A program made the position numbers and the translations under genes. DNA of 64,000 nt from Candidatus Latescibacterota bacterium (lineage in GTDB: Bacteria; Latescibacterota; UBA2968; UBA8231): contig OZ220090.1 of assembly GCA_964291625.2 (NCBI GenBank), positions 160,001 to 224,000 of the forward strand. The letters run 5' to 3'. Below the pieces are notes generated by a model, which searched no databases, had not been told where the DNA came from, and worked only from the letters and a program-made list of their open reading frames with translations. Below are positions 3,099-24,613 of this stretch, piece by piece (positions within the stretch are counted from its first letter, which is position 1; each line of letters starts with the position of its first letter).

Positions 3099-3101
3099 AC
3101 C

Positions 3102-8210: not shown

Positions 8211-9503
8211 TCACCCGGTCACGAAGCGTTCGTAGACCTCGCGGGTCCTCGCCGCCATCAGCTCGTCGCCGCGGCTCTCGTGCACGGCGGCCCGGCCCCG
8301 GCGCCCGAGCCGCAGGCGCCGCTCCTCGTCGTCGTAGAGCGTCTGCAGGCCCGCGGCCACCGCCTCCGGCTCGGCCGCGTCCACCAGCAGCCCGCCGCCG
8401 GTGCCCTCCACCAGTTCCGGGTAGGCCCCGTGCCGGGGCTGCACCACGGGGACGCCGTTGGCCAGCGCCTCGAGCACGTACAGCCCCTTGGGCTCGTGGT
8501 AGGGGGCCGGCACGGTCAGGGCGTGCAGGCCCCGAAGGAACTCGATCTTGCCGGCGCGGTCCACGCTGCCTCGGTACTCGAAGCCGAGGCCGTCGCGTTC
8601 CAGCCCGCCCTTCACCTCCTCGAAGTACTCCCGGTCCGCCGGCCCCAGCCAGCCGGCCGCCTCGAGTCGCACGGCCTCCGGCCCCAGGCGCTCGGCCAGC
8701 AGGCGCAGGGCCCCGGCGGCCACGTGCAGGCCCTTCTCCGGGCAGATGCGGGCCAGGAAGCCGATTCGGAACGGTCCGGGCTCCCGGGCTTCCTCCGGCG
8801 GCGGGCCGTGCCCCTCCAGCCGCAGGCCGAGGGGCACCACGTGGAAGCGGTCCCGCCGCACCTCCAGGTATCCGGCCATGAAGTCGGCGTACGCGGCGCT
8901 CGGCGACAGGAACCCGTCCACCTCGGCGGCGCGCCTTCGCAGCTCCTCCCGGGCCTGCGCCCGGTACGGCTCCACCAGCCGGTCGAGGAAGATCTCCTCC
9001 CCCTGAACGCCGCACAGGACCGGCCGGCCGAGGGCCCGCTTCAGGGGTCCCGCCAGGCCGGCGAGCATGCTGTTGGTGAGCTGCACCAGGTCGGGGCGCA
9101 GCTCCCTCGCCAGCCACCGGCACAGCTCCTCCAGCTGCCGGCGCTGGCGCCCCTCCTCGCCCCGCAGGACCGAGAGGGTGAGGGCCCCCAGGTCGCGGGC
9201 CTCGGTGGCGCCGCCGAAGCGGTCGGCGGCCCAGCGCAGCAGGCCCGGCCGGTCGAGGGGGCGCGTCACCCAGGAGGGCAGGCGCCGCACGAGGGCGGAC
9301 TTCTGCGCCAGGTAGACGCCGATGCCGCCGTAGAACACCCGCTCCAGGCTGACATCCTCCTCGTCGGTGCGCAGCGGCGTGTAGGTCGGGACGAGGGCGA
9401 CATCGACGCCGAGGCCGGTGAGGGCCGCCGCCAGGGTGTTGTCGTGGATGCAGCTGCCGCAGTACATGCCGCCGGCGCCGGCGGTGATGTAGGCGACGCG
9501 CAC
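8211..9503 (-). CDS. Glycosyltransferase family 4
   Basis: ARICPEKG, EPKGLYVLEALANGVPVV GT-B motif. Unusual N-terminal GMYCGSC. Confidence 0.9.
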   Translation of the reverse strand: MRVAYITAGAGGMYCGSCIHDNTLAAALTGLGVDVALVPTYTPLRTDEEDVSLERVFYGGIGVYLAQKSALVRRLPSWVTRPLDRPGLLRWAADRFGGATEARDLGALTLSVLRGEEGRQRRQLEELCRWLARELRPDLVQLTNSMLAGLAGPLKRALGRPVLCGVQGEEIFLDRLVEPYRAQAREELRRRAAEVDGFLSPSAAYADFMAGYLEVRRDRFHVVPLGLRLEGHGPPPEEAREPGPFRIGFLARICPEKGLHVAAGALRLLAERLGPEAVRLEAAGWLGPADREYFEEVKGGLERDGLGFEYRGSVDRAGKIEFLRGLHALTVPAPYHEPKGLYVLEALANGVPVVQPRHGAYPELVEGTGGGLLVDAAEPEAVAAGLQTLYDDEERRLRLGRRGRAAVHESRGDELMAARTREVYERFVTG

Positions 9504-9509
9504 CGCGGC

Positions 9510-10970
9510 TCAGGCCCGGGGGAAGAAGCGGTCGACGACGGCCCGGTCCGGCGGCCTCGTGGCTAGCGACACGAGGATCATGGCCGCCGCCGAGACCGCG
9601 AGGATCACGGCCACGGGCATGACGCCGCCGGCCAGGGCATGGTCCGGGCTCTGCCAGCCGCGGACGAAGAACCAGGTCCACAGCACCACGACGCTGGCGA
9701 TGGAGGCGAAGGCCCCCCAGCGGGTGCTGCGCCGCCAGAACACGGCCGCCGCCACCACCGGGAAGAGGGAGGCGAAGCCGGTGAAGGACCAGACCCCGAG
9801 CTGGAAGATCGAGCGGTTCGAGACCTGGGCCAGGACGTAGGCGACGATGAGGACGAGTGCCACGAAGAGGCGGCCGTAGAGGACCTGCTGGCGCTCGGAC
9901 ATGCGGTCGTGGAAGCCGTAGTGGCGGACCACGTCCTGGGTGAACATGGTGCCCACCGACAGGGACTGGGAGTCGAGGGAGGACATGACGGCGGCGAAGA
10001 CCCCGGCCGCAAGCAGGCCGGCCATCACCTCCGGGGCGTGGAGATCTATCAGGCGCACGAGGATCGAGTTGGCTGCCGGGCCTTGGAGGGCCGGGAAGTC
10101 GAGGCGGCCGGCGACGCCGAGGACGACGCTGGGCACCCACACGGCGGCGATGCACAGCGGGTAGAGGACCAGGGGGGTGCGGAAGGTGCCGGCGCTGCGC
10201 GCCGTGAGCCAGTGCATGAACATGTGCGGGAACATGCCCACAGACAGGGGGATGCAGGTGTAGGTGAGCAGCTTCAGGGGCTTGATGTGGTCGCCGCGCA
10301 CCAGCAGGTCGGGATGGGACTCGCCCAGGGCCGTCATCACCGCCCGCAGCCCCCCCAGCTGGCTGATGATGACGTAGAAGGCGACTCCGCCGAGGATGGT
10401 GAAGACCAGGGTCTGGAAGGCGTTGGCCCAGGCGGTGCCGCGCAGGCCGCCGTAGCAGACGTAGGTCATGACCACGGCGCAGACCAGCAGGCCGCCGGCC
10501 CACTCGGGCACCTGGCCGCCGGTGATCTGCTGCAGCGTCAGGCCGCCGGCCATGATGCCGATCAGCAGGTAGGGCACCAGCAGGGCCACGAGAACGACGA
10601 AGAGCGCCAGGCCGAGACCGTCCGACTGCCAGCGCTGGCGGAAGAACTGGGCCTGGGTCAGGAAGCCGTGGCGCTTGCCGAGGGCCCAGACGCGGGTGCC
10701 GACGAAGAAGAACACGCACGGGATGACCAGGGCCGAGGAGGAAGCCATGAGGGAGAACACGCCGATGCCCTCGTGGTAGGCCTCGCCCGAGGCCCCGAGG
10801 ATGGCGAAGGCCGTCATGTTGGTCCCGAAGAGGGACATGAGCAGCAGGAAGGGGCCGATGGAGCGGCTGGCCACGAAGTAGTCCTCGCCCGTGCCCCGGA
10901 AGAGCCGGTGGCTCAGGGAGCCGACGAGGATCACCAGGCCGAGGTAGACGGCGATGACGGCGAGGGTCAT
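9510..10970 (-). CDS. Sodium:solute symporter family protein
   Basis: EDYFVASRS, YGGLRGTAW, FAAVMSSLDS, many TM helices. Start re-called to ATG 10970. Confidence 0.92.
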   Translation of the reverse strand: MTLAVIAVYLGLVILVGSLSHRLFRGTGEDYFVASRSIGPFLLLMSLFGTNMTAFAILGASGEAYHEGIGVFSLMASSSALVIPCVFFFVGTRVWALGKRHGFLTQAQFFRQRWQSDGLGLALFVVLVALLVPYLLIGIMAGGLTLQQITGGQVPEWAGGLLVCAVVMTYVCYGGLRGTAWANAFQTLVFTILGGVAFYVIISQLGGLRAVMTALGESHPDLLVRGDHIKPLKLLTYTCIPLSVGMFPHMFMHWLTARSAGTFRTPLVLYPLCIAAVWVPSVVLGVAGRLDFPALQGPAANSILVRLIDLHAPEVMAGLLAAGVFAAVMSSLDSQSLSVGTMFTQDVVRHYGFHDRMSERQQVLYGRLFVALVLIVAYVLAQVSNRSIFQLGVWSFTGFASLFPVVAAAVFWRRSTRWGAFASIASVVVLWTWFFVRGWQSPDHALAGGVMPVAVILAVSAAAMILVSLATRPPDRAVVDRFFPRA

Positions 10971-11194
10971 GGCCGCTCCTCCCCCTGCCGGTCGAGGTGC
11001 GCCGGCCAGGCGTGGGTCACCAGCAGGTAGAGCATCCCCGCGGCGGCGGCGCAGAAGGCGACATGGTAGACCAGCCCCGCCGGCAGCCCCGCCACCAGGC
11101 GGCCATCGTCCCACAGCCACAGGTCGTTGTGCAGCAGGTAGAGGATCCCCAGCAGGACGTAGACCATCCCGCGGGCGCGGGTCATACTAGGCAT
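10967..11194 (-). CDS. DUF3311-like small membrane partner of SSS transporters (intact copy)
   Basis: LHNDLWLWDDGRLVAGLP two-helix protein, ATGA-coupled to the SSS gene. Confidence 0.8.
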   Translation of the reverse strand: MPSMTRARGMVYVLLGILYLLHNDLWLWDDGRLVAGLPAGLVYHVAFCAAAAGMLYLLVTHAWPAHLDRQGEERP

Positions 11195-11387
11195 GCGCTC
11201 TCCCCGGTTTCGCTGGCGGGCGGCAGAATCCGCCGGAAGCTCCTCCATCGAAGGTCGTTCACTCTCACCCCCGGCGCCAACGACACGCCCCGCCGGTCTC
11301 GATGGGAGCCAGGGTCAATAGTAGATCGTAGCGCCGAGCCCTCCGAGTACCGCGGAGTGGGCCGAGGGGGCTTGAAGTCAGAAGAAT

Positions 11388-11423
11388 CGGGCAGAAAAAC
11401 CCGGAAGCGGGCGGATCTGCCCG
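11388..11423 (+). promoter_or_regulatory. Two 16-bp imperfect palindromes, candidate upstream activator sequences for a sigma-54 enhancer-binding protein
   Basis: CGGGCAGAAAAACCCG (11388-11403) and CGGGCGGATCTGCCCG (11408-11423), 20 bp apart, about 70-100 bp upstream of the -24 element. Confidence 0.65.
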
Positions 11424-11488
11424 GAACAGGGTACCTGTTCAGCAGTCACTATGACCGCCATTCGGTGGGAATCCCTCCGCCGAGGTAT

Positions 11489-11505
11489 CTGGCACGGGAC
11501 TCGCT
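11489..11505 (+). promoter_or_regulatory. Sigma-54 (-24/-12) promoter of the helicase operon
   Basis: CTGGCACGGGACTCGCT versus consensus YTGGCACGNNNNTTGCW. GG at 11491-92 and GC at 11503-04 have exact spacing. About 60 bp before the helicase ATG, and the operon encodes a GAFTGA activator. Confidence 0.78.
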
Positions 11506-11565
11506 TGTCTGTCGGCCGTGCCGCCATTGGGCGGCTCAGGCAACCAACGACAAGGAGAAAGGACC

Positions 11566-14178
11566 ATGAGGAGGATGGCGCCGCTACACTATCTGAACTT
11601 GGGAGTCCCCAGCCCCGATGACCTCAGGCGTCGAGCGGTCGGGGAGCTCAGGATGTTCCACGAATTCCTCAAGCGGACACGCGACTACCTGACGAGTGAG
11701 GGTGGGAAGCGGGTCACTTGGTGCCGTGGTGACTCGCCGGCCAACGGCAACGGCGATGGGCCAGCTGAGACCGATGGAGAATGGATCCAGTTGACCGAGC
11801 CGCCGGGCCGGCGCAATGAGCCGGAGGCCACTCTTCGGGCATTCCTCGACGAGAACGTGAATGAGGTCTACGAGGCCGAGCCATCCGCCGAACGCCGGGA
11901 ACCGGGTGGGCGTCCTGGCGACTGGCCCTTCAATCGACAGCACAAGATCGACGTGATCGACCGGGACCCCGAGAAGCACCAATTGCTGCTTGAGCGAGTT
12001 CCGGATCTGCCCGAGCTCCTGCTCCAGCCCAACACCTGGCAAATCAAGTGCCAGATCCACGCGCTGCGGGCGCTTCAGTATTCGCCTGCGCCCGCTCACC
12101 GCCCTTTGTTGCGTCTCTTCGAACGTCTCGACCCGGCTCACTGGCCGCTCTTCGAACCGGAGCCCATCGGGGAACCGGACTGGATGGTGCTGACAGACCA
12201 GGACCCCCCCGGGACCGACGAACAACGTCGATTCGTCCAGCGGGCCCTCGGGACGCCGGACTTCGCCTTTCTCGAAGGACCGCCCGGCTCGGGAAAGACC
12301 ACGGCGATCTGCGAGCTGGTGCTCCAACTCGCGAAACGCGGGAAGCGGGTGCTGCTCTGCGCCTCGACGCATGTCGCGGTCGACAATGTGCTCGAGCGTC
12401 TGATGGAAGAGAAAGAGTCCAACTGCCACCGCGATCTGGTGATCCCGGTCCGCATCGGAGACCGCCGGAAGGTCTCCGAGAAGGCGCTCCCGTGGCAGCT
12501 CGAGTGCTTCGTCCGAACCGAGAGGGCGCGTCTGCTCAGGGAGCTCGGGAAGCTTGGGCGACTTGGCTCTCTCACGCCGTCGCAGGAAGCACTGCTGGAC
12601 GCGCTGCGCCCGGACACCTCGGCCATCGAGCGCTTGGTTCTTGATGCCGCAAACCTCGTTTGCGGGACCACCATCGGGATCCTCCAGCATCCGGACATCA
12701 AGTCGGGCGGCCACGCCAGCCCCGACTTCGACGTGCTCATCGTCGATGAAGCCTCCAAGACGTCGTTCCAGGAGTTCCTGGTCCCCGCGTTGCTGGCCAA
12801 GCGGTGGGTCCTCGTCGGCGACCCGAAGCAACTCTCTCCGTACGTCGATGATGAGGAGATGGCGGTGAACATCGAGGCGTGCCTTCCGGATGCGGCGACC
12901 CGGAACGCCTGCATTGACGCCTTCATGGCCGGGCATCACGATCGCCGGAAACGACGCACCGCAGTCGTCGTCGCAGAGGACGAACGAACCCGCCAAGTGT
13001 ACCTCGAGCAGTGCGCTGCCCAGGGCGTAGAGCTCGCCGAAGCGGACCACGATGACGACGTACTCACGGACGCGGGCGTCGTTATCGGAACAGTCACCGC
13101 GCTGGAGCGGAGGGCGGATGAGCTGCCGCTCGACCAGGCGACGGTTCGTTGCCCGGAGAACACGCTGCATGTCGTGCATCGGCGGAATCGCCTTGCCGGA
13201 CGGCACCGCGAAGAACTGCCGGCGTGGGCGTCGGAAGTAGGTTGGCGCCTCGCGAGGTCATACGAGCAGCGTTTCGCAGAGAAACCGGACAATTCGATCG
13301 GCAACCGGCGAACCACCGCGGAACGCCTGGTCCAGGACGTGGAGAAGCTGCTCCCTGTATCTGAAACTGGGACAGATTCCGAACTCGTACGTCAAGAGAT
13401 CGATCGTGTCCGCCGCGTCGCCCTTCCGTCCGTTCTCGAATCGCTGCGTCACGGGTTTGAGCGAACTCCGCGTCAACGGACCGGCTCCGCACTCTCGGAT
13501 GGCCTTCCGTCGTCCGTGCGCGATCCTCGGCACGTCCTTCTGAGCTGGCAGCACCGCATGCATCCCGAGATCGCGGCGTTCTCCCATGAACACGTCTACG
13601 ACCGAGAGGCGCTCGAGACTCCGGAATCCATGGAGGGCGAGCGCAGGTGGAGCTACCCGCGCTACGCTCACCATGCCGTCTGGCGCGACGCTCCTGGCCG
13701 CTTCGACGGGCGCCTCAACTGCAACAAGGACGAAGCCCGATCGGTTGTGTGCGAGCTGCGTCACTTCGATGAGTGGGCGCGCGTGAACCCGCCGCCGAAC
13801 GGCTACCTGTGGGAGGCCGCGGTCCTGACGTTCTACCGGGGACAGGAGCGGGAGACACGTCGCTGTCTCCAAGAATGGACCGGACAGAGAGACTTCAAGC
13901 GAGGGCAGAAGGAGCGGCCATACCTCCACATCAAGCTGTGCACCATCGACCGTTTCCAGGGGCACGAGGCCGACATCGTGCTGATCAGCATCGCCCGGCC
14001 CCACGCAACGAGCTTCTTGGAGAGCCCGAATCGCCTGAACGTCGCCCTGACGAGAGCGCGCTACCAGCGCGTCGTCATCGGCAACCGGCAGGGGATGCTC
14101 CAGGCCCGGGGAACCTTGCTGGAAACGTTGGCCAAGAGTGAGCCGTGGGATACGGACATCCACAGGAGGCAGCAATGA
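11566..14178 (+). CDS. Superfamily 1 (Upf1/DNA2/IGHMBP2-like) helicase
   Basis: GPPGSGKTT, ASTHVAVDN, IVDEAS, LVGDPKQL, QHRMHPEI, TIDRFQGHEAD, RLNVALTRAR. RBS AGGAGAAAGGA before ATG 11566. Long insertion between motifs III and IV. Confidence 0.93.
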   Translation: MRRMAPLHYLNLGVPSPDDLRRRAVGELRMFHEFLKRTRDYLTSEGGKRVTWCRGDSPANGNGDGPAETDGEWIQLTEPPGRRNEPEATLRAFLDENVNEVYEAEPSAERREPGGRPGDWPFNRQHKIDVIDRDPEKHQLLLERVPDLPELLLQPNTWQIKCQIHALRALQYSPAPAHRPLLRLFERLDPAHWPLFEPEPIGEPDWMVLTDQDPPGTDEQRRFVQRALGTPDFAFLEGPPGSGKTTAICELVLQLAKRGKRVLLCASTHVAVDNVLERLMEEKESNCHRDLVIPVRIGDRRKVSEKALPWQLECFVRTERARLLRELGKLGRLGSLTPSQEALLDALRPDTSAIERLVLDAANLVCGTTIGILQHPDIKSGGHASPDFDVLIVDEASKTSFQEFLVPALLAKRWVLVGDPKQLSPYVDDEEMAVNIEACLPDAATRNACIDAFMAGHHDRRKRRTAVVVAEDERTRQVYLEQCAAQGVELAEADHDDDVLTDAGVVIGTVTALERRADELPLDQATVRCPENTLHVVHRRNRLAGRHREELPAWASEVGWRLARSYEQRFAEKPDNSIGNRRTTAERLVQDVEKLLPVSETGTDSELVRQEIDRVRRVALPSVLESLRHGFERTPRQRTGSALSDGLPSSVRDPRHVLLSWQHRMHPEIAAFSHEHVYDREALETPESMEGERRWSYPRYAHHAVWRDAPGRFDGRLNCNKDEARSVVCELRHFDEWARVNPPPNGYLWEAAVLTFYRGQERETRRCLQEWTGQRDFKRGQKERPYLHIKLCTIDRFQGHEADIVLISIARPHATSFLESPNRLNVALTRARYQRVVIGNRQGMLQARGTLLETLAKSEPWDTDIHRRQQ

Positions 14179-15404
14179 ACAGCAACATCATTCTGGAACG
14201 ATCCGTGCCGGTCAAGTGCTGGCATGTCCTCGGTAAGATCGCCAAGGCCAGGGAGCGGCCCGAGCTCATGCCCGTCCTCCTCCGGGCGCGCGAAACCGGC
14301 GGGTCGCAGGCGTGCGACTTGGCAAGGCACTTGCTCTTTGAGCCCCGGGCACGACGTGTTGTCGGGGAGCGGCTCCTGCACATCGCACACGCCTATGGTC
14401 TCGTCAAGAAGAAGGAGCCGGAGCAAGGAGCGTCGAGCATCCGGGCGAGCGGCGTTCCCCTCCTCTCCTTCAGCATCCCTCGGATAGACCCTTGGAAGGA
14501 GCCCAGCGCGTCCGAGGGGATCCGTGGGGAGGAGGAGCGTGATGGCGTCTTCGCTCTCACCGAGGACGGGGAGACGGCCATCGACACCGGGGAGGTGCTG
14601 GTGCCCGAGTACGGAACCTGGAGCATCTGGGAGAGTGAGGATGCCCTTCTCCCCTCTCGGATCCTTCGGATCGCCCCGTGGGAGGAGCCCAGCGCGTACA
14701 ACGAGGTTCGCGGTAAGGAACAGGAAAGGGCACGGCGGCCGGTGCCTCTGCCGGACTGGCTTCGCAAGGTCGCCGGAAAACCCTTTAAGCCTGCTGCCGG
14801 GGATGCCGCGGTAGTCCGTATCGATGAACTCAAGGAAAGAGCAGAGGTCGTCGATGGATCTCTCCGGCTGAGTTGGAACGTCGGCGACGGAAGATTGCAG
14901 CTCACCGGAACTCTGGAAGGGCAGCCGGTGTCATCCGATCTGGAAGCGCCGTCCATGTCGCGAGATCAGATCTGGTCTCACCTCCTTGAAGGGGAAGATC
15001 TCCTATGGCGGTGGGACATTGATGGCAGCAAACTCCGTGTCAGCTTCGAGGAGACCAACGACACCGAACGCGAGGCCATGTCCAGGGATTTTGAGTTCGA
15101 TTCCCCCACCATTCCCGGTTACGGGAAGTTCGATTCCGTCACCGTTCCCGGGGTTTCGACCATGGCCGAATCGGAGGCCGACGCGCAATCGTGGGCGGAG
15201 TGGCGCCTGCAAGCACGGATCCGCGACTACGCCACGTCCGAGCGCTATGCGACTTGGCGCAAAGAGGCGGCTGATCCCTTCGACCAGTACGAGGTGGAAC
15301 TCCCAACCCGAACGGAACTTCACAACGAGTTCTGGAACCGGACGACCAACGTTCCCGAGTTGCGAGCTTGGCGCCTCGCTGCCGCCGAAGATTGGAGATT
15401 GTAG
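14175..15404 (+). CDS. Hypothetical protein, possible N-terminal winged helix, with an internal 40-codon duplication
   Basis: ATGA-coupled to the helicase, AGGAGG RBS. AYGLV...FALTEDG resembles a wHTH wing. Confidence 0.8.
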   Translation: MNSNIILERSVPVKCWHVLGKIAKARERPELMPVLLRARETGGSQACDLARHLLFEPRARRVVGERLLHIAHAYGLVKKKEPEQGASSIRASGVPLLSFSIPRIDPWKEPSASEGIRGEEERDGVFALTEDGETAIDTGEVLVPEYGTWSIWESEDALLPSRILRIAPWEEPSAYNEVRGKEQERARRPVPLPDWLRKVAGKPFKPAAGDAAVVRIDELKERAEVVDGSLRLSWNVGDGRLQLTGTLEGQPVSSDLEAPSMSRDQIWSHLLEGEDLLWRWDIDGSKLRVSFEETNDTEREAMSRDFEFDSPTIPGYGKFDSVTVPGVSTMAESEADAQSWAEWRLQARIRDYATSERYATWRKEAADPFDQYEVELPTRTELHNEFWNRTTNVPELRAWRLAAAEDWRL

Positions 15405-15415
15405 TGGAGATCCCC

Positions 15416-16918
15416 ATGGAGCACTGGACAGAAGAGGTCACTTCTACTGTTGATCAGCGTCACTATCGCCTGCCACCCACGTGGGTACTGCGCAAACCTG
15501 GGCCCCCCGACCAGCTCGAACTGGGGAATGCAGTCCACATCTCAGGAAAGGGCGGGAAGCTGAGAGGGAGAGTCACCGCTCTCCTCGCCTCCGCAAGACA
15601 GAAGGCCGTGGTCTCGAGCTTCCTGATTGCCGACCGCGAGGTCGAAGACGCGATCCTCCAAGCCGCGAAGCGAGGCGTGCGGGTGTATGTGATGCTCGCC
15701 TCGGAGAAGCGTCTCGAAGGCGAGCCCCGCGACGGGGAGTTTCAACGGCGTGTGCTTGACGAGCACAAGGACATGTTGGGCCGCCTTGGTGGCTACGTCC
15801 TGATTCGTTCGGCTCCGCATTTTCATGCCAAGTTGGTACTGGTCGATCCCGAAGCAAGCCCGACGGGGATGTTACTCACAGCGAACCTCACGACCGAAGC
15901 CCTTCGTCGAAACGAGGAGTTGGCCGTCGATTTGAGGCCGGAGGAAGTGAGAGAAGCTGCCGAACTCCTTCGATGGGCAATGTGGGAAGACGCCGAGCAC
16001 GAGTTGGTGGAACCGGGGAACTTTCGCGCAGTGAAGCCTCTCGGCAGCGTCGGCCACCCGGCCCCGTTGCCGCATGTCCTGGCAACCACGTCCTCCGCCG
16101 CTCAACTTCGGGAGGAGGCCGTCGATCTCATCGACAGCGCCGCCCGGGAACTCATCGTCGCGAGCTACGGATGGGCCGCCGACCATCCGGTTGTTGAGCG
16201 TCTCTGCGCACGTGCTCGCGAGGGACTGACAATCACCGTGCTGGCGCGCATTCGTCTCCGCTCCATGCCGGCTCTCCTCGCGCTCTCGGAGACGGGTGCC
16301 AGGGTCCTCGGATTCAAGTGGCTGCACGCCAAAGCGCTGTGGGCCGATTCGGGCAGGGGGCTGGTCATGTCCGCGAACTTGGAGAAGCACGGGCTCGACG
16401 GCGGCTTCGAGCTGGGCCTGCGGTTGGAAGGCGAGCGGGCCAAGGAGCTTCGGACGCGCCTCCGGGGATGGTCCAGTCAGGCGGCGTGGGAGCTCCGACT
16501 CGCGCCTGCATTGGGCGAAGTGGCCGGAGAAGTGCGCGTCTGGCACCAGAACCAATTGCTTGACCGGGACGTGAAACCATCCCTCCAGGTCGATCTCGGC
16601 TCGGTGACGGCCGCATCGGCGCTCGATCTGAAGGCGCCGGATCTACAACCCCCGAGTATCAATGGGCTGCCACAACCCGCACACGAGCTTGAGTGCCGAT
16701 GGCTGGTTCGAGCACCGGAACTGCACCCGGAGGCAAGGGAAGTCACACAGCCTGCCAGCGACAGGAAGGGGGAGCCGACTCCGTACAAGCCCCCCGTGTT
16801 CAAGGAGCCGGGCGGGAAGGTTGTCGTGGCGGTCCAATCCCCGAAAGAGATCCCGAGGGCCCGCCAAGTCGCGGCAGAGGTCGGGGCGGCGGCGGTCGTC
16901 GTTCGAGCGAAGGCCTGA
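15416..16918 (+). CDS. Phospholipase D-family nuclease with two HKD motifs
   Basis: HAKLVLVD..TANLT..NEELAV and HAKALWAD..SANL..FELG. No signal peptide or TM anchor. Confidence 0.88.
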   Translation: MEHWTEEVTSTVDQRHYRLPPTWVLRKPGPPDQLELGNAVHISGKGGKLRGRVTALLASARQKAVVSSFLIADREVEDAILQAAKRGVRVYVMLASEKRLEGEPRDGEFQRRVLDEHKDMLGRLGGYVLIRSAPHFHAKLVLVDPEASPTGMLLTANLTTEALRRNEELAVDLRPEEVREAAELLRWAMWEDAEHELVEPGNFRAVKPLGSVGHPAPLPHVLATTSSAAQLREEAVDLIDSAARELIVASYGWAADHPVVERLCARAREGLTITVLARIRLRSMPALLALSETGARVLGFKWLHAKALWADSGRGLVMSANLEKHGLDGGFELGLRLEGERAKELRTRLRGWSSQAAWELRLAPALGEVAGEVRVWHQNQLLDRDVKPSLQVDLGSVTAASALDLKAPDLQPPSINGLPQPAHELECRWLVRAPELHPEAREVTQPASDRKGEPTPYKPPVFKEPGGKVVVAVQSPKEIPRARQVAAEVGAAAVVVRAKA

Positions 16919-16923
16919 TTCCA

Positions 16924-18420
16924 ATGGAGCGCACGGATCCTACACTGGTTTGCTGGCACTCCGAGCGGGGGGGATTCGAGGTACTGGAACGCACGATCGC
17001 AACGCTTCGAAACCGTCGGGTCAGAATTGCGCACGTGATCTACCTGATACAGAGAGGGCGCAAGCTCGAAGTGCCGGCCAAGTTGCGGTTGCCGACCATC
17101 GAGGTGCTGGAGCTGCCGGTGGAGGATCCGACCAGGCATTCCGAAGTCTACAGGGCCGTGCGCGACCGCGTGCTGCCCAGATTGCGCGAATGTGGGGGGA
17201 TCCACGTCAACGTCTCTCCCGGCACCCCGGCCATGCACGCGGTGTGGATCATCCTTCACGCAGGGGGTGCGTTTCCTCCGGACACGAAGCTCTGGTCGTC
17301 GCAGTACAACCCGGAAACGAGACGGACGCGCATTGATCCCGTCGAGTTCCCGGTCACGACCTACCTGTCCGAGGTGCATGAAGTCGAACACGTCAAACCC
17401 GATCTCGCCGTGTACGAGCCCCAGGCGCTGTCTTCGGCCCGGCTTGCCGCGTTCGAGCGGCTAGCCCGCTACGCCAGGGTGGCGGGCGCCCCCCTCCTCG
17501 TCCTGGGCGAGCGCGGCACTGGAAAGACCCGGATCGTCGAAACACTCGTCGCGACCTTGAAGAGGCGGCCGGAGGTCGTCAGCGTTCCATGTGGAGGTCT
17601 CGATTCCTCGCTGGTCGACGGCATGCTCTTCGGACACCGAAAGGGCGCCTTCACCGGCGCCGAGAGCGACCGCCCCGGACTGCTGAAAGAGGCGGACGGC
17701 GGGATCCTGTTCCTCGATGAGGTTCAGGATCTTCCGAGACCCGCGCAGCGCAAGCTCGTGCGGGTGTTCCAGGATCGCCTGCGGCGTTTCCGGCCCCTCG
17801 GCAGCGACCAGGAGAAGACGGTCGATATCGAGCTGGTTTGCGCATCGAATCTCGATGTGGTCGATCTACGGGAGCGCCTCGATCCGGACCTCTACGATCG
17901 GCTCAGCCACTTCGCGGTGGAGATTCCCCCGTTGCGCGAGTGCCGTGACGATGTCGCGGAGGACTGGGGCAGGGTGTGGCGAGAGCTGCGCCAGCAGGAG
18001 GGTTTCCCCCTCGATGCGCCTTGGAACTCCGAACTGGAGCTTGCCCTTGCACGGAGCGAGTTGCCGGGGAATCTACGTGACCTGCAGCGGTTGGCGGTTC
18101 TGCTGATGGCTTGGTGGTCCGACAACGATACCGACAGAGCAATTGCTGACGCTCTCAAGGACTGGACGGACTGGACGATCGCGACGCGGTCGGACGATGA
18201 CATCCTTGGCTCCGGTACGCGCCGCGACCGTATCCGATGGTTTCAGGGGCGCTTGGCCAGATGGGCGAAACGAGAGTACGGGACATGGACAGCGGCAGGG
18301 CAAGCGCTGGGCTGCGATGAGAAAACGCTCCGACAGGATGTCTTCCCGAGCGACGATCAGGCATCCGCCCAGGCGATAGCCGCGCCGCCGGCCGCCCACG
18401 CCCTCGACAAGCCGCTGTAG
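16924..18420 (+). CDS. Sigma-54-dependent activator (bEBP) with N-terminal CARF/RtcR-like sensor domain
   Basis: GERGTGKT, intact GAFTGA, FLDEV, PPLRE, PGNLRDL, C-terminal HTH (TAAGQALGCDEKTL). N-terminal DPTRHSEVY..IHVNVSPGTPAMHAVW resembles RtcR-type CARF. No receiver domain. Confidence 0.85.
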   Translation: MERTDPTLVCWHSERGGFEVLERTIATLRNRRVRIAHVIYLIQRGRKLEVPAKLRLPTIEVLELPVEDPTRHSEVYRAVRDRVLPRLRECGGIHVNVSPGTPAMHAVWIILHAGGAFPPDTKLWSSQYNPETRRTRIDPVEFPVTTYLSEVHEVEHVKPDLAVYEPQALSSARLAAFERLARYARVAGAPLLVLGERGTGKTRIVETLVATLKRRPEVVSVPCGGLDSSLVDGMLFGHRKGAFTGAESDRPGLLKEADGGILFLDEVQDLPRPAQRKLVRVFQDRLRRFRPLGSDQEKTVDIELVCASNLDVVDLRERLDPDLYDRLSHFAVEIPPLRECRDDVAEDWGRVWRELRQQEGFPLDAPWNSELELALARSELPGNLRDLQRLAVLLMAWWSDNDTDRAIADALKDWTDWTIATRSDDDILGSGTRRDRIRWFQGRLARWAKREYGTWTAAGQALGCDEKTLRQDVFPSDDQASAQAIAAPPAAHALDKPL

Positions 18421-18559: not shown

Positions 18560-18738
18560 CTCTGGCGGCGTAGAGGCCGCGTGGTAGACAAGCCCCACCG
18601 CCAGGCGGCCCGTCGTCCCACAGCCACAGGTCGTTGTGCAGCAGGTAGAGGATCCCCCGACAGGACGTAGACGGCGTTTCGCGCACGCTTCCCGGCCAGC
18701 GAAGGGACTCCCGTCTCAGGCTCTCGGTTCGGGGTCAT
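18560..18738 (-). pseudogene. Frameshifted second copy of the DUF3311 gene
   Basis: 18613-18657 is identical over 45 bp to 11106-11150, with degenerate similarity on both sides. Its ATG overlaps the HAD stop (ATGA). Confidence 0.85.
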
Positions 18739-19487
18739 TCAGTCTCGTTCATCACCTCCGAAATGACACCCGGCAGCTCGGCGAGAGATCCCACCGTCAG
18801 GTCGCACTCGGCCGAGGCAGCGCCTCCCACCTTGACCGTCCTCAGGCCGGCGCCGCGGGCGGAGGCGAGGGGCTCGACGCCGTCATCCACCACGATCGTC
18901 CGAGAAGGTACGGCCCCAACGGCCTCGAGGATGGCCGGGTAGAACCGCGAGTCCCCCTTCTGAAAGCCGACCAGATCGGAGCCGAAAGGTTTCCCGACCC
19001 GGTCGCTCACGCCCAGCCTGCGCAGCACCGTCTCGACGACGAAGGAGGGGTTCCCCGACGCCATGTGGATCTCGATGCGGCCGGAGAGTTCCTCGATCGC
19101 CTTGGCAGCCCCGGGGAAGACGCCCTGCGTGTTCTCGAGGATGTGGATCGTCGCCCGCTCCGCAACATCGACCCGCTCCTCGAACGTCTCCGGAGCCTCG
19201 ACGCCGACGACCGCGCACACCTCCGCGATCCACTCGGCCTCGACCCGGTCCCACCAGCGCGAGAGGTTGAGCCCCCGGCGCCCCGGGTCGCGGCGGAACT
19301 CGCTGCTGCCGCGCCTCCAGACCTCCTGCCAAACCCTCTCCTGGTGGGCCGCCCACACCGCGGGATCGCCGCCCAGCAGAGAAGCGAGGGCCGGTCCGCC
19401 GAGCCGGGCGGACTCCTTCTCCCAGCGCTCGTTGTCGAGGATGACCCCGTCGACGTCGAGGAGCAGGGTAGGGCGGTCGGGGTCCAT
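18735..19487 (-). CDS. HAD-superfamily hydrolase
   Basis: LLLDVDGVI motif I, ASGN motif II, K and VVDDG motifs III/IV. Confidence 0.9.
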   Translation of the reverse strand: MDPDRPTLLLDVDGVILDNERWEKESARLGGPALASLLGGDPAVWAAHQERVWQEVWRRGSSEFRRDPGRRGLNLSRWWDRVEAEWIAEVCAVVGVEAPETFEERVDVAERATIHILENTQGVFPGAAKAIEELSGRIEIHMASGNPSFVVETVLRRLGVSDRVGKPFGSDLVGFQKGDSRFYPAILEAVGAVPSRTIVVDDGVEPLASARGAGLRTVKVGGAASAECDLTVGSLAELPGVISEVMNETE

Positions 19488-19506
19488 TCAGGGGATAGCC
19501 GGCGGT

Positions 19507-19685
19507 TGGTCAGCACGGGGAGCACCGACCCAAGGTCGTCGAGGACAGGCGTTGTCGCCCGGCTCTCCGGGACCTTCCCGGAGCCTCTCCCCGGTCTCAG
19601 CGTCCAGGGCAGAAAAACCGGCCCCGGTATCTCCTGGTCAACTCGAAGAGGTGGCCGCTTCGCAGGCGAGGAGGCGGCGCAGAGA
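19507..19685 (-). pseudogene. Decayed partial copy of the 3' part of the PQQ-propeller gene at 22178-23467
   Basis: Aligns by eye to about 22366-22545 (shared gcgttgtcgccc, gggaccttccc, accggccccggtat). Remnant reads GHLFELTRRYRGRF and DDLGSVLPVLT versus GRLFGLTRKYRGRL and VDLGSALLVLT, with frameshifts. Confidence 0.8.
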
Positions 19686-19838
19686 CTCGCGGCGGTCAGG
19701 CCGGCGTCCAGAACCTCGGGTGCCTGGAACGTCAGCTCCGCTGACAGGGCCTTTGCCTGGGTGCCGGTCCGGCGTTGATTCAGGCGATCCGTCCGTGAAG
19801 GCCCACTCGACAAACCCTCTCCACAGGGCAGGCGAAGA

Positions 19839-22139
19839 ATGAGGCGTGAACTGACTGATCTCCTGGCGAAGATCTCCCCGCCCGGCGCCTTCGCCGCCCG
19901 CACCACGGCCGCGCCTGACGCTCTCCGCCTCGAAGTGCGGGGTGTGGGCCGCGTGGCCCTCCCGGTCACCCGCGCCAGGGCGCGCCGGTTGTGCGGCGTC
20001 GCCCGTCCAGCCCGCTACGGCCTCCAAGACCAGACCCTTTTGGACCCCGGGGTCCGCGACACCTGGGAGATCGCCCGCAGCCGCATCAGGATCGACCAGC
20101 GCAGATGGAAGCAGACGCTTCTCCCGGAGTTGGAGCGGATACGCCGCGGTCTCGGGCTTCCCGAGGATTGTCGCCTGTCCGCGGCACTGCACAACATGCT
20201 GGTCTACGAGCCGGGCCAGTTCTTCCTCCCCCATCAGGACACGGAGAAGCAGGACGGCATGATCGGCAGCCTCGTCGTGCTCCTGCCTTCGGATCACAAG
20301 GGGGGCTCGATCCAGGTGGAGCACCACGACGAGAAGGTGAGCTTCAGGGGCTCGCGCGAGAAGCTGACCCTCATCGCCTTCTATGCCGATTGCCGCCACG
20401 AGGTCCGTCCGGTGAAGGAAGGCTACCGGGTGGCCCTGACCTACAACCTGCGGGCCACAGGGGGCGGCGCCGGGGTCCCCTCTCCGCCAGCCGAGGACGC
20501 GACCAGGGGGCTGGCCCGGGCGCTCGGCAAGTACCTCGAGACACCCCCTCCCGACTCCTGGAGGGACGACCCGTGCCGCCTGTTCGTCTACCTCCTCGAC
20601 CATCAGTACACCCAGCGGGGTCTCGCCTGGCAGCGGCTCAAGAACGCCGACGCCGCCCGCGCCGCGGCCTTGCGGGAGGCCGCCCGGCAGCTCGACTGCG
20701 AGGTCTTCCTGGCCTTGGCGCAGGTTCGGGAAACCCGGGAGCCCGAGGAAACGCGGGGCATGCGGGGCGGCTACGAGGACTATGACGACTACGACGTCTA
20801 CGACGACGAGGAGCCTTCCGCCGACGCCGGCCTGGGAGACTTGATCGACACCGAGATCGAACTGCGTCACTGGGTGGGGAAGGGCAGGCCGCGGGGGAGC
20901 CGCTACGTCCACGAGCACGATCTCTTCTACACGAAGCCCTCGGCCGAGTTGACGCCCTTCCACTCTGAGCACGAGCCCTACATGGGCAACTGGGGCAATA
21001 CGGTCGACCGCTGGTACCGCCGCGCCGCGGTCGTCCTCTGGCCGCGGCAACACGGCTTCGCGCTCCGGGCGCAAGCATCGGGACGCTGGGCCTTCGCCGA
21101 GATCGCCAGGAAGCTGAAGTCGGGAGACCTCGCCGAGGCCCGCTCCCTGACCGGCGAGATGCTGCCTTTCTGGAAGGGCTCTCCGCAAGACCAGGAACGC
21201 CCGGGCCTCTTCATCGACGTGTTGAAGGTTGGCCGGCAACTCGGTGAACCGGATCTGGCCTTGTCGCTGCTGCAGCCCTTCGAGCTGGAACAACTGACCC
21301 CCGAAACAGCTGACGAGCTTGGGGCCCTGATCGACGCCTACGGAGTGCCGTGGTGCCAAGGCCTGCTCGACCGCTGGGCCTCGGAAGCCAGGCGGGGCAT
21401 ATCCCTCGAGCGGCCGGACTGGCTCGCCGCCCTGCCGGGCCTCTGCCGGGCCCTGTGCGAACAGGACTCCGCAGCGGGCGGGAAACTGGCGGCCTGGCTG
21501 GTGGGCGGGCAGTGGCGCTGGTGGAAGGCCCGATGGGAAGAAGGCTGCGACGCCCCCGATCCCGGGGAATCACTCGAGGTGCTGAAAGCGGCCTGCGGCC
21601 CCTTTCTCGGGCTGCTGGAGAGCAGCGTCGTCACCGGCAGCCGCGAGCTGCAGGACACGATGCTGCGCTTCGCAGCCGGCGCGGCCGGCGGGCCCGTGCT
21701 CGCCCTGACCCACCTTCTACGGGCTGCGCTGCGGGTCCGGCCGCGTGCGACCCTGGCGGGACTGAGACTGGGAGATCTGGGCGCCCGATGCATGAAGGAG
21801 CTGCAGTCACGCCTCGACCAACCGCCCCGCGGTCCGCAGGACTGGTCCATCCGGGGGCCCGTCCGTTGCGGGTGCGACTTGTGTGCCCAGCTGTCCCGGT
21901 TTCTCGCCGATCCGGAACGCACCCTGTTCGAGTGGCCCATCGCCAAGCAGAAGCGCCGTCACGTCCACGGAATCATCGAGGTACACGCTTTCCCGGTAAC
22001 CCACCGGACCCGCCGGACCGGCAGTCCGTACACCCTCGTGCTGGAGAAGACCCGGGCCCTGTTCGAGACGGAAGCGGCCGAGCGCAAAGCATGGCAGCGC
22101 GAGCTGTCCTGGCTGAAGAAGAACCAGCGGCTCTTCTGA
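19839..22139 (+). CDS. Large 2OG-Fe(II) oxygenase-domain protein
   Basis: VYEPGQFFLPHQDTEK (HxD), CRHEVRPV..GYRVALTYNL, then LDHQYT motif, an acidic stretch and a C-terminal CGCDLC. Confidence 0.88.
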   Translation: MRRELTDLLAKISPPGAFAARTTAAPDALRLEVRGVGRVALPVTRARARRLCGVARPARYGLQDQTLLDPGVRDTWEIARSRIRIDQRRWKQTLLPELERIRRGLGLPEDCRLSAALHNMLVYEPGQFFLPHQDTEKQDGMIGSLVVLLPSDHKGGSIQVEHHDEKVSFRGSREKLTLIAFYADCRHEVRPVKEGYRVALTYNLRATGGGAGVPSPPAEDATRGLARALGKYLETPPPDSWRDDPCRLFVYLLDHQYTQRGLAWQRLKNADAARAAALREAARQLDCEVFLALAQVRETREPEETRGMRGGYEDYDDYDVYDDEEPSADAGLGDLIDTEIELRHWVGKGRPRGSRYVHEHDLFYTKPSAELTPFHSEHEPYMGNWGNTVDRWYRRAAVVLWPRQHGFALRAQASGRWAFAEIARKLKSGDLAEARSLTGEMLPFWKGSPQDQERPGLFIDVLKVGRQLGEPDLALSLLQPFELEQLTPETADELGALIDAYGVPWCQGLLDRWASEARRGISLERPDWLAALPGLCRALCEQDSAAGGKLAAWLVGGQWRWWKARWEEGCDAPDPGESLEVLKAACGPFLGLLESSVVTGSRELQDTMLRFAAGAAGGPVLALTHLLRAALRVRPRATLAGLRLGDLGARCMKELQSRLDQPPRGPQDWSIRGPVRCGCDLCAQLSRFLADPERTLFEWPIAKQKRRHVHGIIEVHAFPVTHRTRRTGSPYTLVLEKTRALFETEAAERKAWQRELSWLKKNQRLF

Positions 22140-22177
22140 CCTCTTGGAGACTCTCGCGGGGGGAAAGCGGGCACATC

Positions 22178-23467
22178 TCAGGGCGCGGCCTCTCCCGGTT
22201 CGGCGGACGGCAGCCGCCAGCAGGCGAGGTGGGTCTTGTCCTTCACGAGAAGCCGGTCGCCGGCCACGGCCGGGTGGGCCCAAGTGGGACTCTCGGCCAG
22301 GCGATACTCCGCAAGCAGGCGGAACTCCGGCGCCGTCGTGGAGACCACGGCCAAGCGGGCCTCGGTGGTCAGCACCAGCAGGGCGGATCCCAGGTCGACG
22401 AGGACGGCGTTGTCGCCCAGCTCCCCGGGACCTTCCCAGAGCCTGTCGCCCGTGCCCGCGTCCAGGCTGAACAACCGGCCCCGGTATTTCCTCGTCAGTC
22501 CGAAGAGACGGCCCCCGGAGACCACCGGCGAGGCCATGTAGAGCCAGTCCTGGTGGTTGTGCCACAGCCCCTGCACCTGGAGGCCCTTCTCGCCGCGGTC
22601 GAAGTGCAGAGCCAGGGTGCCCTGCTCCAGTCCCGAGAGGGCCACGGTCCCCGGCCCGAGGAGGACGGGCGTGACGATGTTCTGGTCGTACGGAGTGGTG
22701 AAGGGGAGGCGCCACAGCTCCTTGCCGACGGCCGCGTCCAGGGCCAGGCAGAACCGCTCCGACTGGGTCACGAGCACCGGCCCGCCGGCATCCACCACCA
22801 CGGGGGAGGCGTATCCCGGTCCGTCCCCCTCCCAGCGCCAGCGCTCGGCGCCGCTGTCGGCGGCCAGTGCCAACAGGGCCCCGCGGCCGGGACCGCCCAG
22901 GTGAGCGACCACGAGATCTCCGAGGACCAAGGGAGAGGTGGCCGTCCCGAAGAGCGGCGCCGTGGCGGGGAACCGGCCCTCGGATTCCCAGCGCCACAGC
23001 AGCTCTCCGCTGGCCGCGTCGTGGGAGGACAGGATGCCGGTGATCCCCAGGGTGAAGATGCGGCCCCCTGCGGCGGCCGGGGTCGACTTGGGGCCCTTGC
23101 CGTGCCCCCGCGCCGCCGGGTGCATCTCGTAGGGCGCCCGGTTCGTCTGCCGCCACAGCACCTCGCCCGAGGCCAGGGACAGGCAGGAGAGGGTTTCGAG
23201 GTCGCCGAGCCGGGCGTGCAGGTACACGCGGTCCCCCACGACGACCGGACCGGCATGTCCTTCGCCGACCTCGGTGCGCCACTCCCGCAGCAGGCTGTCC
23301 GGCCAGGCGGCGGGCGCCTGGAAGCCGGGGGCGCGGCCGTCACGTTCCGGACCGCGCCACTGGGGCCAGTCCCCGCCCGGCACGGGGGAGGCGGCGAGGA
23401 GGCACGCGGCGATCAGAAGGGCGGCGAAGCCGCGGGTGCCGGGAAAGGTCGATGGACCCTTGTCCAC
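22178..23467 (-). CDS. Secreted PQQ-like (BamB-type) beta-propeller protein
   Basis: Signal-like segment, DWPQWRGPERDG, repeated A.SGE.LW blades, SPVV motifs. Confidence 0.88.
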   Translation of the reverse strand: MDKGPSTFPGTRGFAALLIAACLLAASPVPGGDWPQWRGPERDGRAPGFQAPAAWPDSLLREWRTEVGEGHAGPVVVGDRVYLHARLGDLETLSCLSLASGEVLWRQTNRAPYEMHPAARGHGKGPKSTPAAAGGRIFTLGITGILSSHDAASGELLWRWESEGRFPATAPLFGTATSPLVLGDLVVAHLGGPGRGALLALAADSGAERWRWEGDGPGYASPVVVDAGGPVLVTQSERFCLALDAAVGKELWRLPFTTPYDQNIVTPVLLGPGTVALSGLEQGTLALHFDRGEKGLQVQGLWHNHQDWLYMASPVVSGGRLFGLTRKYRGRLFSLDAGTGDRLWEGPGELGDNAVLVDLGSALLVLTTEARLAVVSTTAPEFRLLAEYRLAESPTWAHPAVAGDRLLVKDKTHLACWRLPSAEPGEAAP

Positions 23468-23480
23468 GCTGCTCTTCAAC

Positions 23481-23777
23481 TCACTGCGTGGACGTGGCAT
23501 GTTCCTCCAAGACCTCGACACAGAGCTTCTGGCAATGGCTGCAGATCGCGGCGTCAGCTCCCTTCCTGGAGAACATGTGGGACGCTTCGTCCGGACCTCG
23601 CTTGCAGAAGTGGCAGGGGCCTTCTGCATTGGTCAGCCAGTCAGAGGCCGTCGTCCCTTCAAGCACCCTGCCGCACGTGGCCACGCAGTCGCTGCAGATG
23701 TGCACGGATGGGCCTGTAACAACCTGGACAGAGTCGCTGACCGACTGTCCGCAGAAAGAGCAGCTTGGACTCGGCAT
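23481..23777 (-). CDS. Small protein of two tandem ClpX C4-type zinc fingers
   Basis: CSFCG..ICSDC and CHFCK..ICSHC. GGAGG upstream. Confidence 0.8.
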   Translation of the reverse strand: MPSPSCSFCGQSVSDSVQVVTGPSVHICSDCVATCGRVLEGTTASDWLTNAEGPCHFCKRGPDEASHMFSRKGADAAICSHCQKLCVEVLEEHATSTQ

Positions 23778-23946
23778 GTCATGCCCTCCAGGAAGATGTC
23801 CAGAGTCAAGAGCCGGATGGTCTCAGACTGCACCCCGCCGCACGGCGAGGCGATGACTATCAGAATCTGCGCATGCCCGTGCCGAACCGGATGGAGGCCA
23901 TGGCAGAGAGGATCGAAGGCTGTCGTCTGAGAAGGAGAACCGAGGG

Positions 23947-24138
23947 CTACGAGACTTCGCGCCCTTCACGGATAGACCGACACTGCCGCTTCCTGGAGGG
24001 TGCCCAGTCTACAACTCTGTGGGCATGTCCATGCTCTCTCTCGCGGATCATGGCGCCCAGGCGCGCCACGTCATAGTCGTGCTCGCGAGCGATGTCCTCC
24101 TTGATCTTCCACAAGGGGGCGATGATTTCATCCTTCAT
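23947..24138 (-). CDS. Small putative antitoxin partner of the PIN gene
   Basis: MKDEIIAPLWKIKEDIAREHDYDV resembles small partners found downstream of this PIN subtype. Overlaps the PIN stop. Confidence 0.6.
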   Translation of the reverse strand: MKDEIIAPLWKIKEDIAREHDYDVARLGAMIREREHGHAHRVVDWAPSRKRQCRSIREGREVS

Positions 24139-24613
24139 CAGGCTGACCTCCTACCATCTCCTGGGGAGTGCAGATCTCTGGACAGGGATACGCATGCCCG
24201 ACACAGAGTTCGCGGATTCGTGGTTTGGTCAGAGCGTTGTCTATATGCCTGAAGTTCCAAGTGAGAAGGTAGTCGACGGCGTGCACCGCGGATAGAGCGA
24301 TATGAAGCGCGTCATCCGCGGCGACAATGGGCAAGGGACCAGGACTTACGAGCCTCTCGGCGAACTGCACGACCTGGTCCGACGCAGTCAACAATGGGAT
24401 ACCCTCCAGCTGCGCCATTCGGCGGCTTGCCGCCTCCTCATCGCCACGGCTGGCTTCCTCAAGGACCAAGGCCGAAGTGCACAGATCGAAGTCCTGGCGT
24501 TGGCGGTTCCACCACCACGCCGTGATCTCCTGCCATGCCGCAACCAACGGGTTCGGCGATGGGCGCGCGGTCAGGTAACTGACGATCGATGTCTCGATGT
24601 AGAGCGAAGCCAT
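24128..24613 (-). CDS. PIN-domain (VapC-like) ribonuclease toxin
   Basis: YIETSIVSYL, VLEEA, DALHIA, LLTWNFRHI, ICTP. Confidence 0.88.
   Translation of the reverse strand: MASLYIETSIVSYLTARPSPNPLVAAWQEITAWWWNRQRQDFDLCTSALVLEEASRGDEEAASRRMAQLEGIPLLTASDQVVQFAERLVSPGPLPIVAADDALHIALSAVHAVDYLLTWNFRHIDNALTKPRIRELCVGHAYPCPEICTPQEMVGGQPDEG

Follow-up and report, generated by a model that had tools for sequence, protein, structure and literature searches.

Mokosh type I consists of MkoA, which combines a helicase with a kinase, and MkoB, a phospholipase D (PLD)-family protein; it protects Escherichia coli, and protection requires both the ATP site of the helicase and the PLD site (Millman 2022 preprint). 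In the CoCoNuT systems, the gene for the Upf1-like helicase CnuH typically precedes one for a winged-helix effector, which in type III-C carries two PLD domains. Coupling of the helicase to the nuclease effector has been proposed for the CnuH-CnuE pair, and RtcR-like CARF activators, for which induction and feedback were proposed, accompany some CoCoNuT types (Bell et al. 2024, PMC11090510). Helicase-to-nuclease coupling is described as general in nuclease-NTPase systems (10.1101/2025.07.10.664194). RtcR of E. coli is reported to need contact of RtcA/RtcB with its CARF domain (PMC9650030), and RtcR-like CARF-NtrC-HTH proteins are found next to restriction-modification (R-M) genes (Makarova 2014, PMC4012209). 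Both the occurrence of RtcR-like CARF activators beside defence genes and the feedback idea are already published (Makarova 2014; Bell et al. 2024). Here we describe a four-gene cassette from a Candidatus Latescibacterota bacterium, located in a 64,000-nucleotide stretch of contig OZ220090.1 (assembly GCA_964291625.2, positions 160,001 to 224,000), which is referred to below as the window. As judged from its sequence, the cassette is probably a self-contained, horizontally mobile, inducible and self-amplifying defence variant that resembles Mokosh type I and has a split MkoB.

The operon comprises four tightly packed genes on the + strand (11566-18420), which encode a Upf1-like superfamily 1 (SF1) helicase, a protein of an unnamed family that we term the adaptor, a PLD-family nuclease and a sigma-54 activator with a CARF domain. 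The start of the adaptor gene overlaps the helicase stop codon as ATGA; 11 nt separate the adaptor gene from the PLD gene, and 5 nt separate the PLD gene from the activator gene. In a simple scan of the + strand, no terminator-like site was found inside the operon. A first-pass annotation, made by a model from the letters of this DNA, had proposed the four genes as a candidate new anti-phage system. Its account of the packing, the overlap, the gaps and the coordinates is accurate, as is its statement that the catalytic motifs of the helicase, the nuclease and the activator are intact (see below). It was also right that the four proteins contain no kinase domain (Pfam, E<=0.1) and that neither rtcA nor rtcB lies within the window. 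The operon sits in a stretch of lower G+C content, which extends from 10.5 to 25 kb in a window of ~74% G+C; the G+C fraction is 0.61-0.67 over 11-19 kb compared with 0.73-0.79 in the first 10 kb.

The helicase gene (11566-14178, +) encodes 870 residues and corresponds to an MkoA-like core without the kinase. The protein matches Pfam AAA_11 (9e-38) and AAA_12 (4e-27) as well as the PADLOC model for MkoA (PDLC03920, 6e-81), the latter only at model positions 618-1077 of 1112, which make up the helicase half. Its Walker A motif GPPGSGKT, motif II (DEAS), motif III and motifs V/VI vary little or not at all among the 22 aligned helicases, with Walker A and B unchanged in 22/22. Residues 1-215 have no family match; for this segment the protein Atlas leads to clusters of the UPF1/SMUBP-2 1B domain, which we note as a lead only. 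The helicase also gave a partial match to the NCBIfam model 'PLuB', a name under which no relevant paper was found.

The third gene (15416-16918, +) encodes a two-HKD PLD-family nuclease of 500 residues, which matches Pfam PLDc_2 in two stretches (5e-20). It carries two complete HxK-x4-D-x6-...N motifs, whose residues H137/K139/D144/N157 and H304/K306/N321 are invariant in 19/19 homologues. In PADLOC, the protein matches DrmC models with E-values down to 5.5e-21 and MkoB (PDLC03922) with 1.9e-13, covering model positions 309-591 of 610. The NCBIfam DrmC model gave 9.4e-24 (84 bits against a cut-off of 133), and the best matches are the nuclease-type PLDs DrmC, MkoB and NucT. A BLASTP comparison with canonical MkoB, taken from a relative's genome, was not significant (E 0.69); the apparent relation between the two proteins is visible at the profile level only.

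Between the helicase and the nuclease lies the adaptor gene (14175-15404, +), whose product of 409 residues has no match in Pfam, PADLOC v2.0.0 or NCBIfam 2026 and leads only to unnamed clusters in the protein Atlas. Its family forms 102 clusters at 90% identity. A profile search retrieved 807 representatives (50% identity) at E<=1e-3, 295 of them at <=1e-30, and the best 150 of the 807 include no fusions, all being stand-alone proteins with a length of 158-446 residues. The AlphaFold2 (AF2) model of the adaptor has a mean predicted local distance difference test score (pLDDT) of 82, and its first ~110 residues resemble MarR-type winged helix-turn-helix (wHTH) folds (Foldseek, probability 0.94-1.00). 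Searched with the adaptor model, Foldseek returned no match at E<=1e-3 in the PDB and none in BFVD. When compared with an alignment of 23 MkoB homologues built for this purpose, residues 3-140 of the adaptor align with MkoB residues 21-112 (hhalign, probability 63.7%, E 6.7e-5). This support, modest but specific, suggests that gene 2 starts with the same winged-helix module as heads MkoB. The first-pass annotation had called the protein an extra unknown subunit, which remains apt with respect to the libraries, but its beginning is a winged helix that can be aligned weakly with the MkoB N-terminus. The window copy and its three closest aligned relatives also contain an insert of ~40-60 residues at adaptor residues ~84-122 (14420-14540), which is absent from most family members. 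The insert is modelled with pLDDT <50, and the motif ...PW(K/E)EPSA... occurs twice; by its appearance, the insert arose as a tandem copy of the segment that follows and has since decayed in part.

Structure prediction further suggests how the adaptor and the nuclease may be joined. The model of the PLD-adaptor complex scored an ipSAE of 0.78, compared with 0.00 for the best of three controls, and so passed the mark applied to such models. Among solved complexes 58 of 80 attain this mark, and among mismatched pairs 2 of 110, counts that are rough since our own alignments were used. Runs agree in >=93% of contacts, and the partners have a pLDDT of at least 75. In the model, the C-terminal tail of the adaptor (residues 352-409) lies on the first lobe of the PLD protein, and the interface takes in invariant residues of both partners, namely A403/D406/W407/L409 of the adaptor and W187/W190 of the nuclease. 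The prediction supports binding of the adaptor to the PLD protein through its conserved C-terminal tail, which we regard as a putative docking element.

A scan of one genome per species yielded 27 loci that encode a gene 2 relative. They span Latescibacterota, Alpha-, Beta- and Gammaproteobacteria, Myxococcota, Bradymonadia, Trueperaceae and Acidimicrobiia, with Pseudomonas, Stutzerimonas, Rhodoferax, Aquabacterium and Aquitalea among the proteobacterial representatives. Helicase, adaptor and PLD genes are colinear on one strand in 25/27 loci, the other two being cut by contig ends, and neighbouring cassette genes in the related loci mostly overlap by 4 nt. Across phyla, the three core genes stay together and show translational coupling. 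An activator gene lies 3' of the PLD gene in 18/27 loci; three loci end too soon to tell, and six with at least 4.5 kb of downstream sequence lack it (L001, L004, L006, L012, L023 and L027). The first-pass annotation had made its proposal depend on joint conservation of the four genes; they do form a real unit that is found in several phyla, of which the activator is an optional part. In a helicase tree (FastTree, support values not inspected), the activator-less loci form a clade of four, L001, which is the sister of the window copy, and the distant L027. As these loci are scattered, the activator appears to have been gained or lost more than once. Activator-less L027, an actinobacterial copy in an Acidimicrobiia metagenome-assembled genome, fits its phylum, which generally lacks sigma-54. 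Two short activator-bearing contigs, L003 and L025, were assigned to Trueperaceae and Streptococcus, neither of which is known for sigma-54; the binning of both may be wrong.

The distribution of the cassette is patchy. The gene 2 family was found in 1/60 genomes of relatives, nine genomes from the same genus gave no match, and the genes flanking the cassette in the window recur at none of the 27 loci. Most copies are chromosomal, and plasmids of Vibrio and Pontibrevibacter carry others. On the Vibrio rumoiensis plasmid, the same four genes are annotated as helicase, hypothetical protein, PLD-domain protein and sigma-54-interacting regulator. Unconserved flanks, patchy occurrence and plasmid copies together indicate that the unit is the cassette itself and that it moves horizontally. 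Two damaged copies were also encountered. On the Klebsiella pneumoniae conjugative plasmid CP052287.1 (L038), a remnant lies beside IS26 and IS21 copies, with the PLD and sigma-54 activator genes annotated, a fragment of the adaptor left and no helicase annotated. In the gammaproteobacterial locus L023, which has no activator, an insertion sequence (IS) with a DDE_Tnp_1_4 transposase (8e-161; 8862-10474) splits the adaptor gene.

The surroundings of some related loci point to defence. In L001, the closest chromosomal relative, the cassette is flanked by an NgoMIV-type R-M pair on one side and by large N6-methylase/AAA and STAND-NTPase genes on the other (1517-3804 and 10402-16424), which by gene content is a clear defence island; this copy has neither activator nor promoter. 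In L011, the Wadjet gene JetA lies near the cassette.

The fourth gene (16924-18420, +) encodes the activator, a protein of 498 residues with the CARF-AAA+-HTH architecture. It matches the PADLOC model RtcR_PspF1--CARF_AAA_HTH (PDLC01994) at 3.9e-155 over nearly its whole length (residues 5-472 on model positions 3-464 of 468) and Sigma54_activat at 3.6e-38, and it contains the GAFTGA loop. By contrast, the match to the RtcR equivalog model NCBIfam NF038308 (4.6e-51) reaches 174 bits against a cut-off of 650. A sequence-profile search of the PDB with an alignment of the N-terminal domain gave nothing meaningful (best E 0.1). An AF2 model of residues 1-175, built from 14 homologues (pLDDT 73), found 35 PDB matches at E<=1e-3 by Foldseek, all listed ones being CARF proteins: Csm6, Card1, Cam1, Can2, Cad1 and ring nucleases, with probability 1.00 and a TM-score of about 0.5. 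At the level of predicted structure, the CARF fold of the N-terminal domain is confirmed, a point on which the first-pass annotation had let its proposal stand or fall. The source genome contains 19 matches to the AAA+ part of the activator, and only the window copy matches the CARF part as well.

Upstream of the helicase gene, the regulatory elements expected by such an activator are found on the DNA. The sequence TGGCACGGGACTCGCT (11490-11505, +), 76 nt upstream of the first ATG, matches the sigma-54 consensus TGGCAC-N5-TYGCW for the -24/-12 region. It is the single match in the window, where 0.11 would be expected by chance and 11/100 shuffled sequences contained at least one. A ribosome-binding-like AAGGAG (11552-11557) precedes the helicase ATG by 8 nt. 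With the -24 GG and -12 GC correctly spaced upstream of gene 1, a GAFTGA-containing activator in the operon and rpoN present in the source genome, the features of a sigma-54 operon are all in place. Further upstream lie two perfect CGGG-N8-CCCG dyads, CGGGCAGAAAAACCCG (11388-11403) and CGGGCGGATCTGCCCG (11408-11423), which are spaced by exactly 20 nt, that is, two helical turns, and whose common centre is ~86 nt upstream of the -24 GG. This tandem dyad is unique in the window, and a perfect pair arose in 0/100 Markov simulations; we consider the two dyads putative upstream activator sites. The first-pass annotation had reported the promoter, and its entry for the cassette starts at 11388, which turns out to be the first base of the tandem dyad. 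Directly after the second dyad, the sequence GAACAGG gta CCTGTTC (11424-11440) forms a perfect inverted repeat, with arms of 7 nt around a spacer of 3 nt, which is not visibly kept in the related loci looked at.

Across the related loci, to which one uniform test for promoter and dyads was applied, these elements track the activator gene. Of 17 activator-bearing copies, 16 have a -24/-12 element at a distance of 51-93 nt upstream of the helicase start; the remaining one, on the Vibrio plasmid, has TGGCAC-N5-TTGA. The element is present in none of the six activator-less loci and in two of the three whose activator status is hidden by contig ends. Likewise, a tandem dyad with at most 4/16 mismatches is found at a fixed offset, ~100 nt upstream of the promoter, in 14/17 activator-bearing copies, whereas in the activator-less loci the best matches are at chance level, with 5-8 mismatches and at scattered positions. 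The set includes the near-identical loci L008/L009/L018 and L020/L022, and the number of independent cases is therefore smaller than these counts. Since the regulatory sites co-occur with the activator gene, activator, promoter and operator appear to act as one module, which is either attached to the three-gene core or missing from it.

How does the cassette compare with the described systems? As in Mokosh type I, a gene for a COG1112/Upf1-like SF1 helicase adjoins one for a PLD-family nuclease, the ATP site and the HKD sites are intact, and the N-terminal winged helix of the adaptor aligns weakly with the MkoB N-terminus. Unlike MkoA, however, the helicase lacks the ~600 N-terminal positions that include the Ser/Thr kinase, and functions akin to those of MkoB seem to be split over an adaptor gene and a two-HKD PLD gene, with adaptor residues 141-409 unrelated to MkoB at the sequence level. 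All 25 complete cassette loci have three core genes rather than two, and most copies possess a dedicated CARF-sigma-54 activator, a promoter and predicted binding sites.

The resemblance to the cnuH-cnuE genes of type II/III CoCoNuTs, especially to type III-C with its wHTH-2xPLD CnuE, lies in a Upf1-like helicase gene followed by an (elongated) winged-helix gene that is coupled to a nuclease effector, a comparison made by description. In the cassette, though, the winged-helix protein and the PLD protein are encoded by separate genes, and the activator gene comes last, whereas RtcR homologues are described at the 5' end of CoCoNuT operons (Bell et al. 2024). Neither CnuB (McrB-like GTPase), CnuC (McrC) nor the Hsp70-like CnuD is encoded beside the cassette, which is not a CoCoNuT because it has no McrBC-like genes. 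With RtcR-RtcBA the cassette shares a CARF-AAA+(sigma-54)-HTH activator and a sigma-54 promoter with an upstream site. Its activator, however, scores below the RtcR cut-off, falls into the separate RtcR_PspF1 profile, has no adjacent rtcA or rtcB, and is encoded downstream in the same operon instead of divergently. The only RtcB homologue of the genome lies on another contig (C1, 1795713-1796777), ~6 kb from a sigma-54 activator without a CARF match, and RtcA was not found in the source genome, which is 95% complete. DISARM comes into view through the strongest PADLOC and NCBIfam matches of the PLD protein, which are DrmC models, but the match is below the NCBIfam cut-off and the cassette contains no DrmA, DrmB or methylase. 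In animals, piRNA biogenesis employs a Upf1-like RNA helicase (MOV10L1/Armitage) and a PLD-family nuclease (PLD6/Zucchini) on single-stranded RNA (Cury et al. 2022 preprint), a parallel that is an analogy via shared domains only.

Neither Pfam, PADLOC v2.0.0 nor NCBIfam 2026 has a name for the whole four-gene set. We found no published description of it in the literature searched, which did not cover supplementary files (those on CoCoNuT may list relatives), and among the listed matches for papers on Mokosh/MkoA none also mentions sigma54 or sigma-54. The novelty claimed by the first-pass annotation stands to this extent, but calling the cassette a variant, either of Mokosh type I or of a cnuH-cnuE-type module, suits it better than calling it a wholly new system.

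On the basis of these comparisons, a defence function of the cassette is likely, and we propose that it operates as follows. In the resting cell, the sigma-54 promoter would be nearly silent, so that a potentially self-damaging nuclease is kept off. A cue of infection or RNA damage would be sensed by the CARF domain, the probable ligands being RNA ends or fragments, as proposed for RtcR. The cue would free the AAA+ domain, and the activator, bound at the tandem dyads, would open the sigma-54 promoter and raise the levels of helicase, adaptor and nuclease, along with more activator. Since the gene for the activator closes the very operon that it controls, the loop would be positive and switch-like. 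The helicase could then load on phage RNA or on single-stranded nucleic acid, and the adaptor, as the detached equivalent of the N-terminal part of MkoB or CnuE, could pass the substrate from the helicase to the PLD protein for cutting.

A different loop had been suggested by the first-pass annotation, in which the products of the nuclease feed back on the CARF sensor. PLD-family nucleases leave 5'-phosphate and 3'-OH ends and not the 2',3'-cyclic phosphates linked to RtcR. Because this end chemistry does not fit, feedback of that kind is unlikely as stated. The position of the activator gene offers a simpler positive loop. A nucleotide cue from type III CRISPR or from an anti-phage signalling system based on cyclic oligonucleotides (CBASS) is also unlikely, because the synthases, Cas10 (Cmr2/Csm1) and SMODS cyclases, are absent above cut-off from the five cassette-bearing genomes searched.

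Several observations weigh against the defence variant proposed here. The link between the adaptor and MkoB amounts to 89 aligned columns at 64% probability, and nothing with a recognisably similar fold was found for adaptor residues 141-409. With the exception of a 2-oxoglutarate (2OG) oxygenase domain, the window neighbourhood contains no recognised defence gene, and among 12 sampled related loci only L001 and L011 have clear defence neighbours, two more (L019 and L008) being suggestive. The contact with RtcA/RtcB that E. coli RtcR needs (PMC9650030) has no counterpart in genes linked to the cassette. Moreover, as the activator is encoded in the operon under its own control, some basal expression would be needed, and a simple scan of the + strand found no sigma-70-like promoter inside the operon.

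As to the cue, one more specific version of events is conceivable, which we put forward tentatively. The cassette might be a second-line, alarm-induced module, in which the CARF-sigma-54 activator reads RNA-damage products, such as tRNA halves or other RNA ends, that either the phage or first-line nucleases of the host leave early in infection, and then induces the helicase-adaptor-PLD effector complex and itself from a silent sigma-54 promoter.

The main rival to a defence function is an accessory role in RNA surveillance, in which the sensor detects damaged cellular RNA and induces the helicase and the nuclease to clear damaged or stalled transcripts. RtcR, the nearest characterised relative of the activator, controls RNA repair (PMC4012209), and helicases of the Upf1 family act in RNA surveillance (PMC11090510); the window neighbourhood, moreover, is not a defence island, and no synthase of cyclic oligoadenylates (cOA) or of CBASS was found in any of the five cassette-bearing genomes. 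A housekeeping task nevertheless fits poorly with occurrence in one of 60 relatives, carriage on plasmids and location in a low-G+C island. Disruption by the IS in L023, the plasmid remnant, and the R-M and Wadjet neighbours of some loci also speak against it, and the closest profile matches of the effectors belong to a system that was tested as anti-phage. We therefore judge this role unlikely.

The mobility of the cassette raises another alternative, namely that it serves a mobile element in plasmid or island competition, exclusion or addiction, with the nuclease acting against incoming rival DNA or against cells from which the element is lost. The Vibrio and Pontibrevibacter plasmid copies, the remnant on the Klebsiella conjugative plasmid, the horizontal spread across phyla and the lack of conserved flanks are in line with such a role. 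Yet neither a small antitoxin-like partner nor linkage to replication or transfer genes was seen, and most copies are chromosomal, which makes a mobile-element module quite improbable; it also overlaps with defence against mobile elements, from which it is hard to separate by sequence alone. Finally, it is scarcely credible that the operon serves sigma-54-controlled membrane remodelling, with a lipid enzyme of the cardiolipin/phosphatidylserine synthase type as its PLD protein: a plasmid record labels a homologue 'phosphatidylserine/phosphatidylglycerophosphate/cardiolipin synthase family protein' and NCBIfam cardiolipin synthase models match weakly (E 1e-3, far below cut-off), but the best matches are the nuclease-type PLDs DrmC, MkoB and NucT, and at every locus an obligate linkage, with translational coupling, ties the PLD gene to those for the SF1 helicase and the winged-helix protein.

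The prevailing view is that most known anti-phage systems are produced constitutively and regulated post-translationally. A widespread effector module that comes with or without a dedicated sensor-activator and the promoter and binding sites to match thus offers a natural comparison for the benefit of transcriptional gating in nuclease defence, and it provides a compact handle on what RtcR-like CARF domains sense outside the Rtc regulon. The separation of adaptor and PLD protein suggests that MkoB and CnuE are themselves built of two modules, a winged-helix adaptor and a nuclease, which can also exist as separate polypeptides. If the alarm-induced version were true, the cassette would exemplify transcriptional, self-amplifying induction of bacterial immunity, with a logic comparable to that of interferon-stimulated genes, and the RtcR_PspF1 branch of CARF sensors would for the first time have its function and ligand class defined. 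Should the function be ordinary RNA housekeeping, interest would be lower, yet it would remain useful to have a sigma-54 regulon whose operator is defined.

The remainder of the low-G+C stretch (18636-24613) encodes further proteins of its own. It contains a 380-residue open reading frame (ORF) without a family match, an ORF of 161 residues, a 766-residue protein with a 2OG-Fe(II) oxygenase domain that is also matched by the PADLOC 'CRISPR-associated 2OG' model, and, on the - strand, a gene for a BamB/PQQ-like beta-propeller. No tRNA gene marking the island was found. None of the genes just listed adjoins the cassette in the other loci, and the island may carry them as separate cargo.

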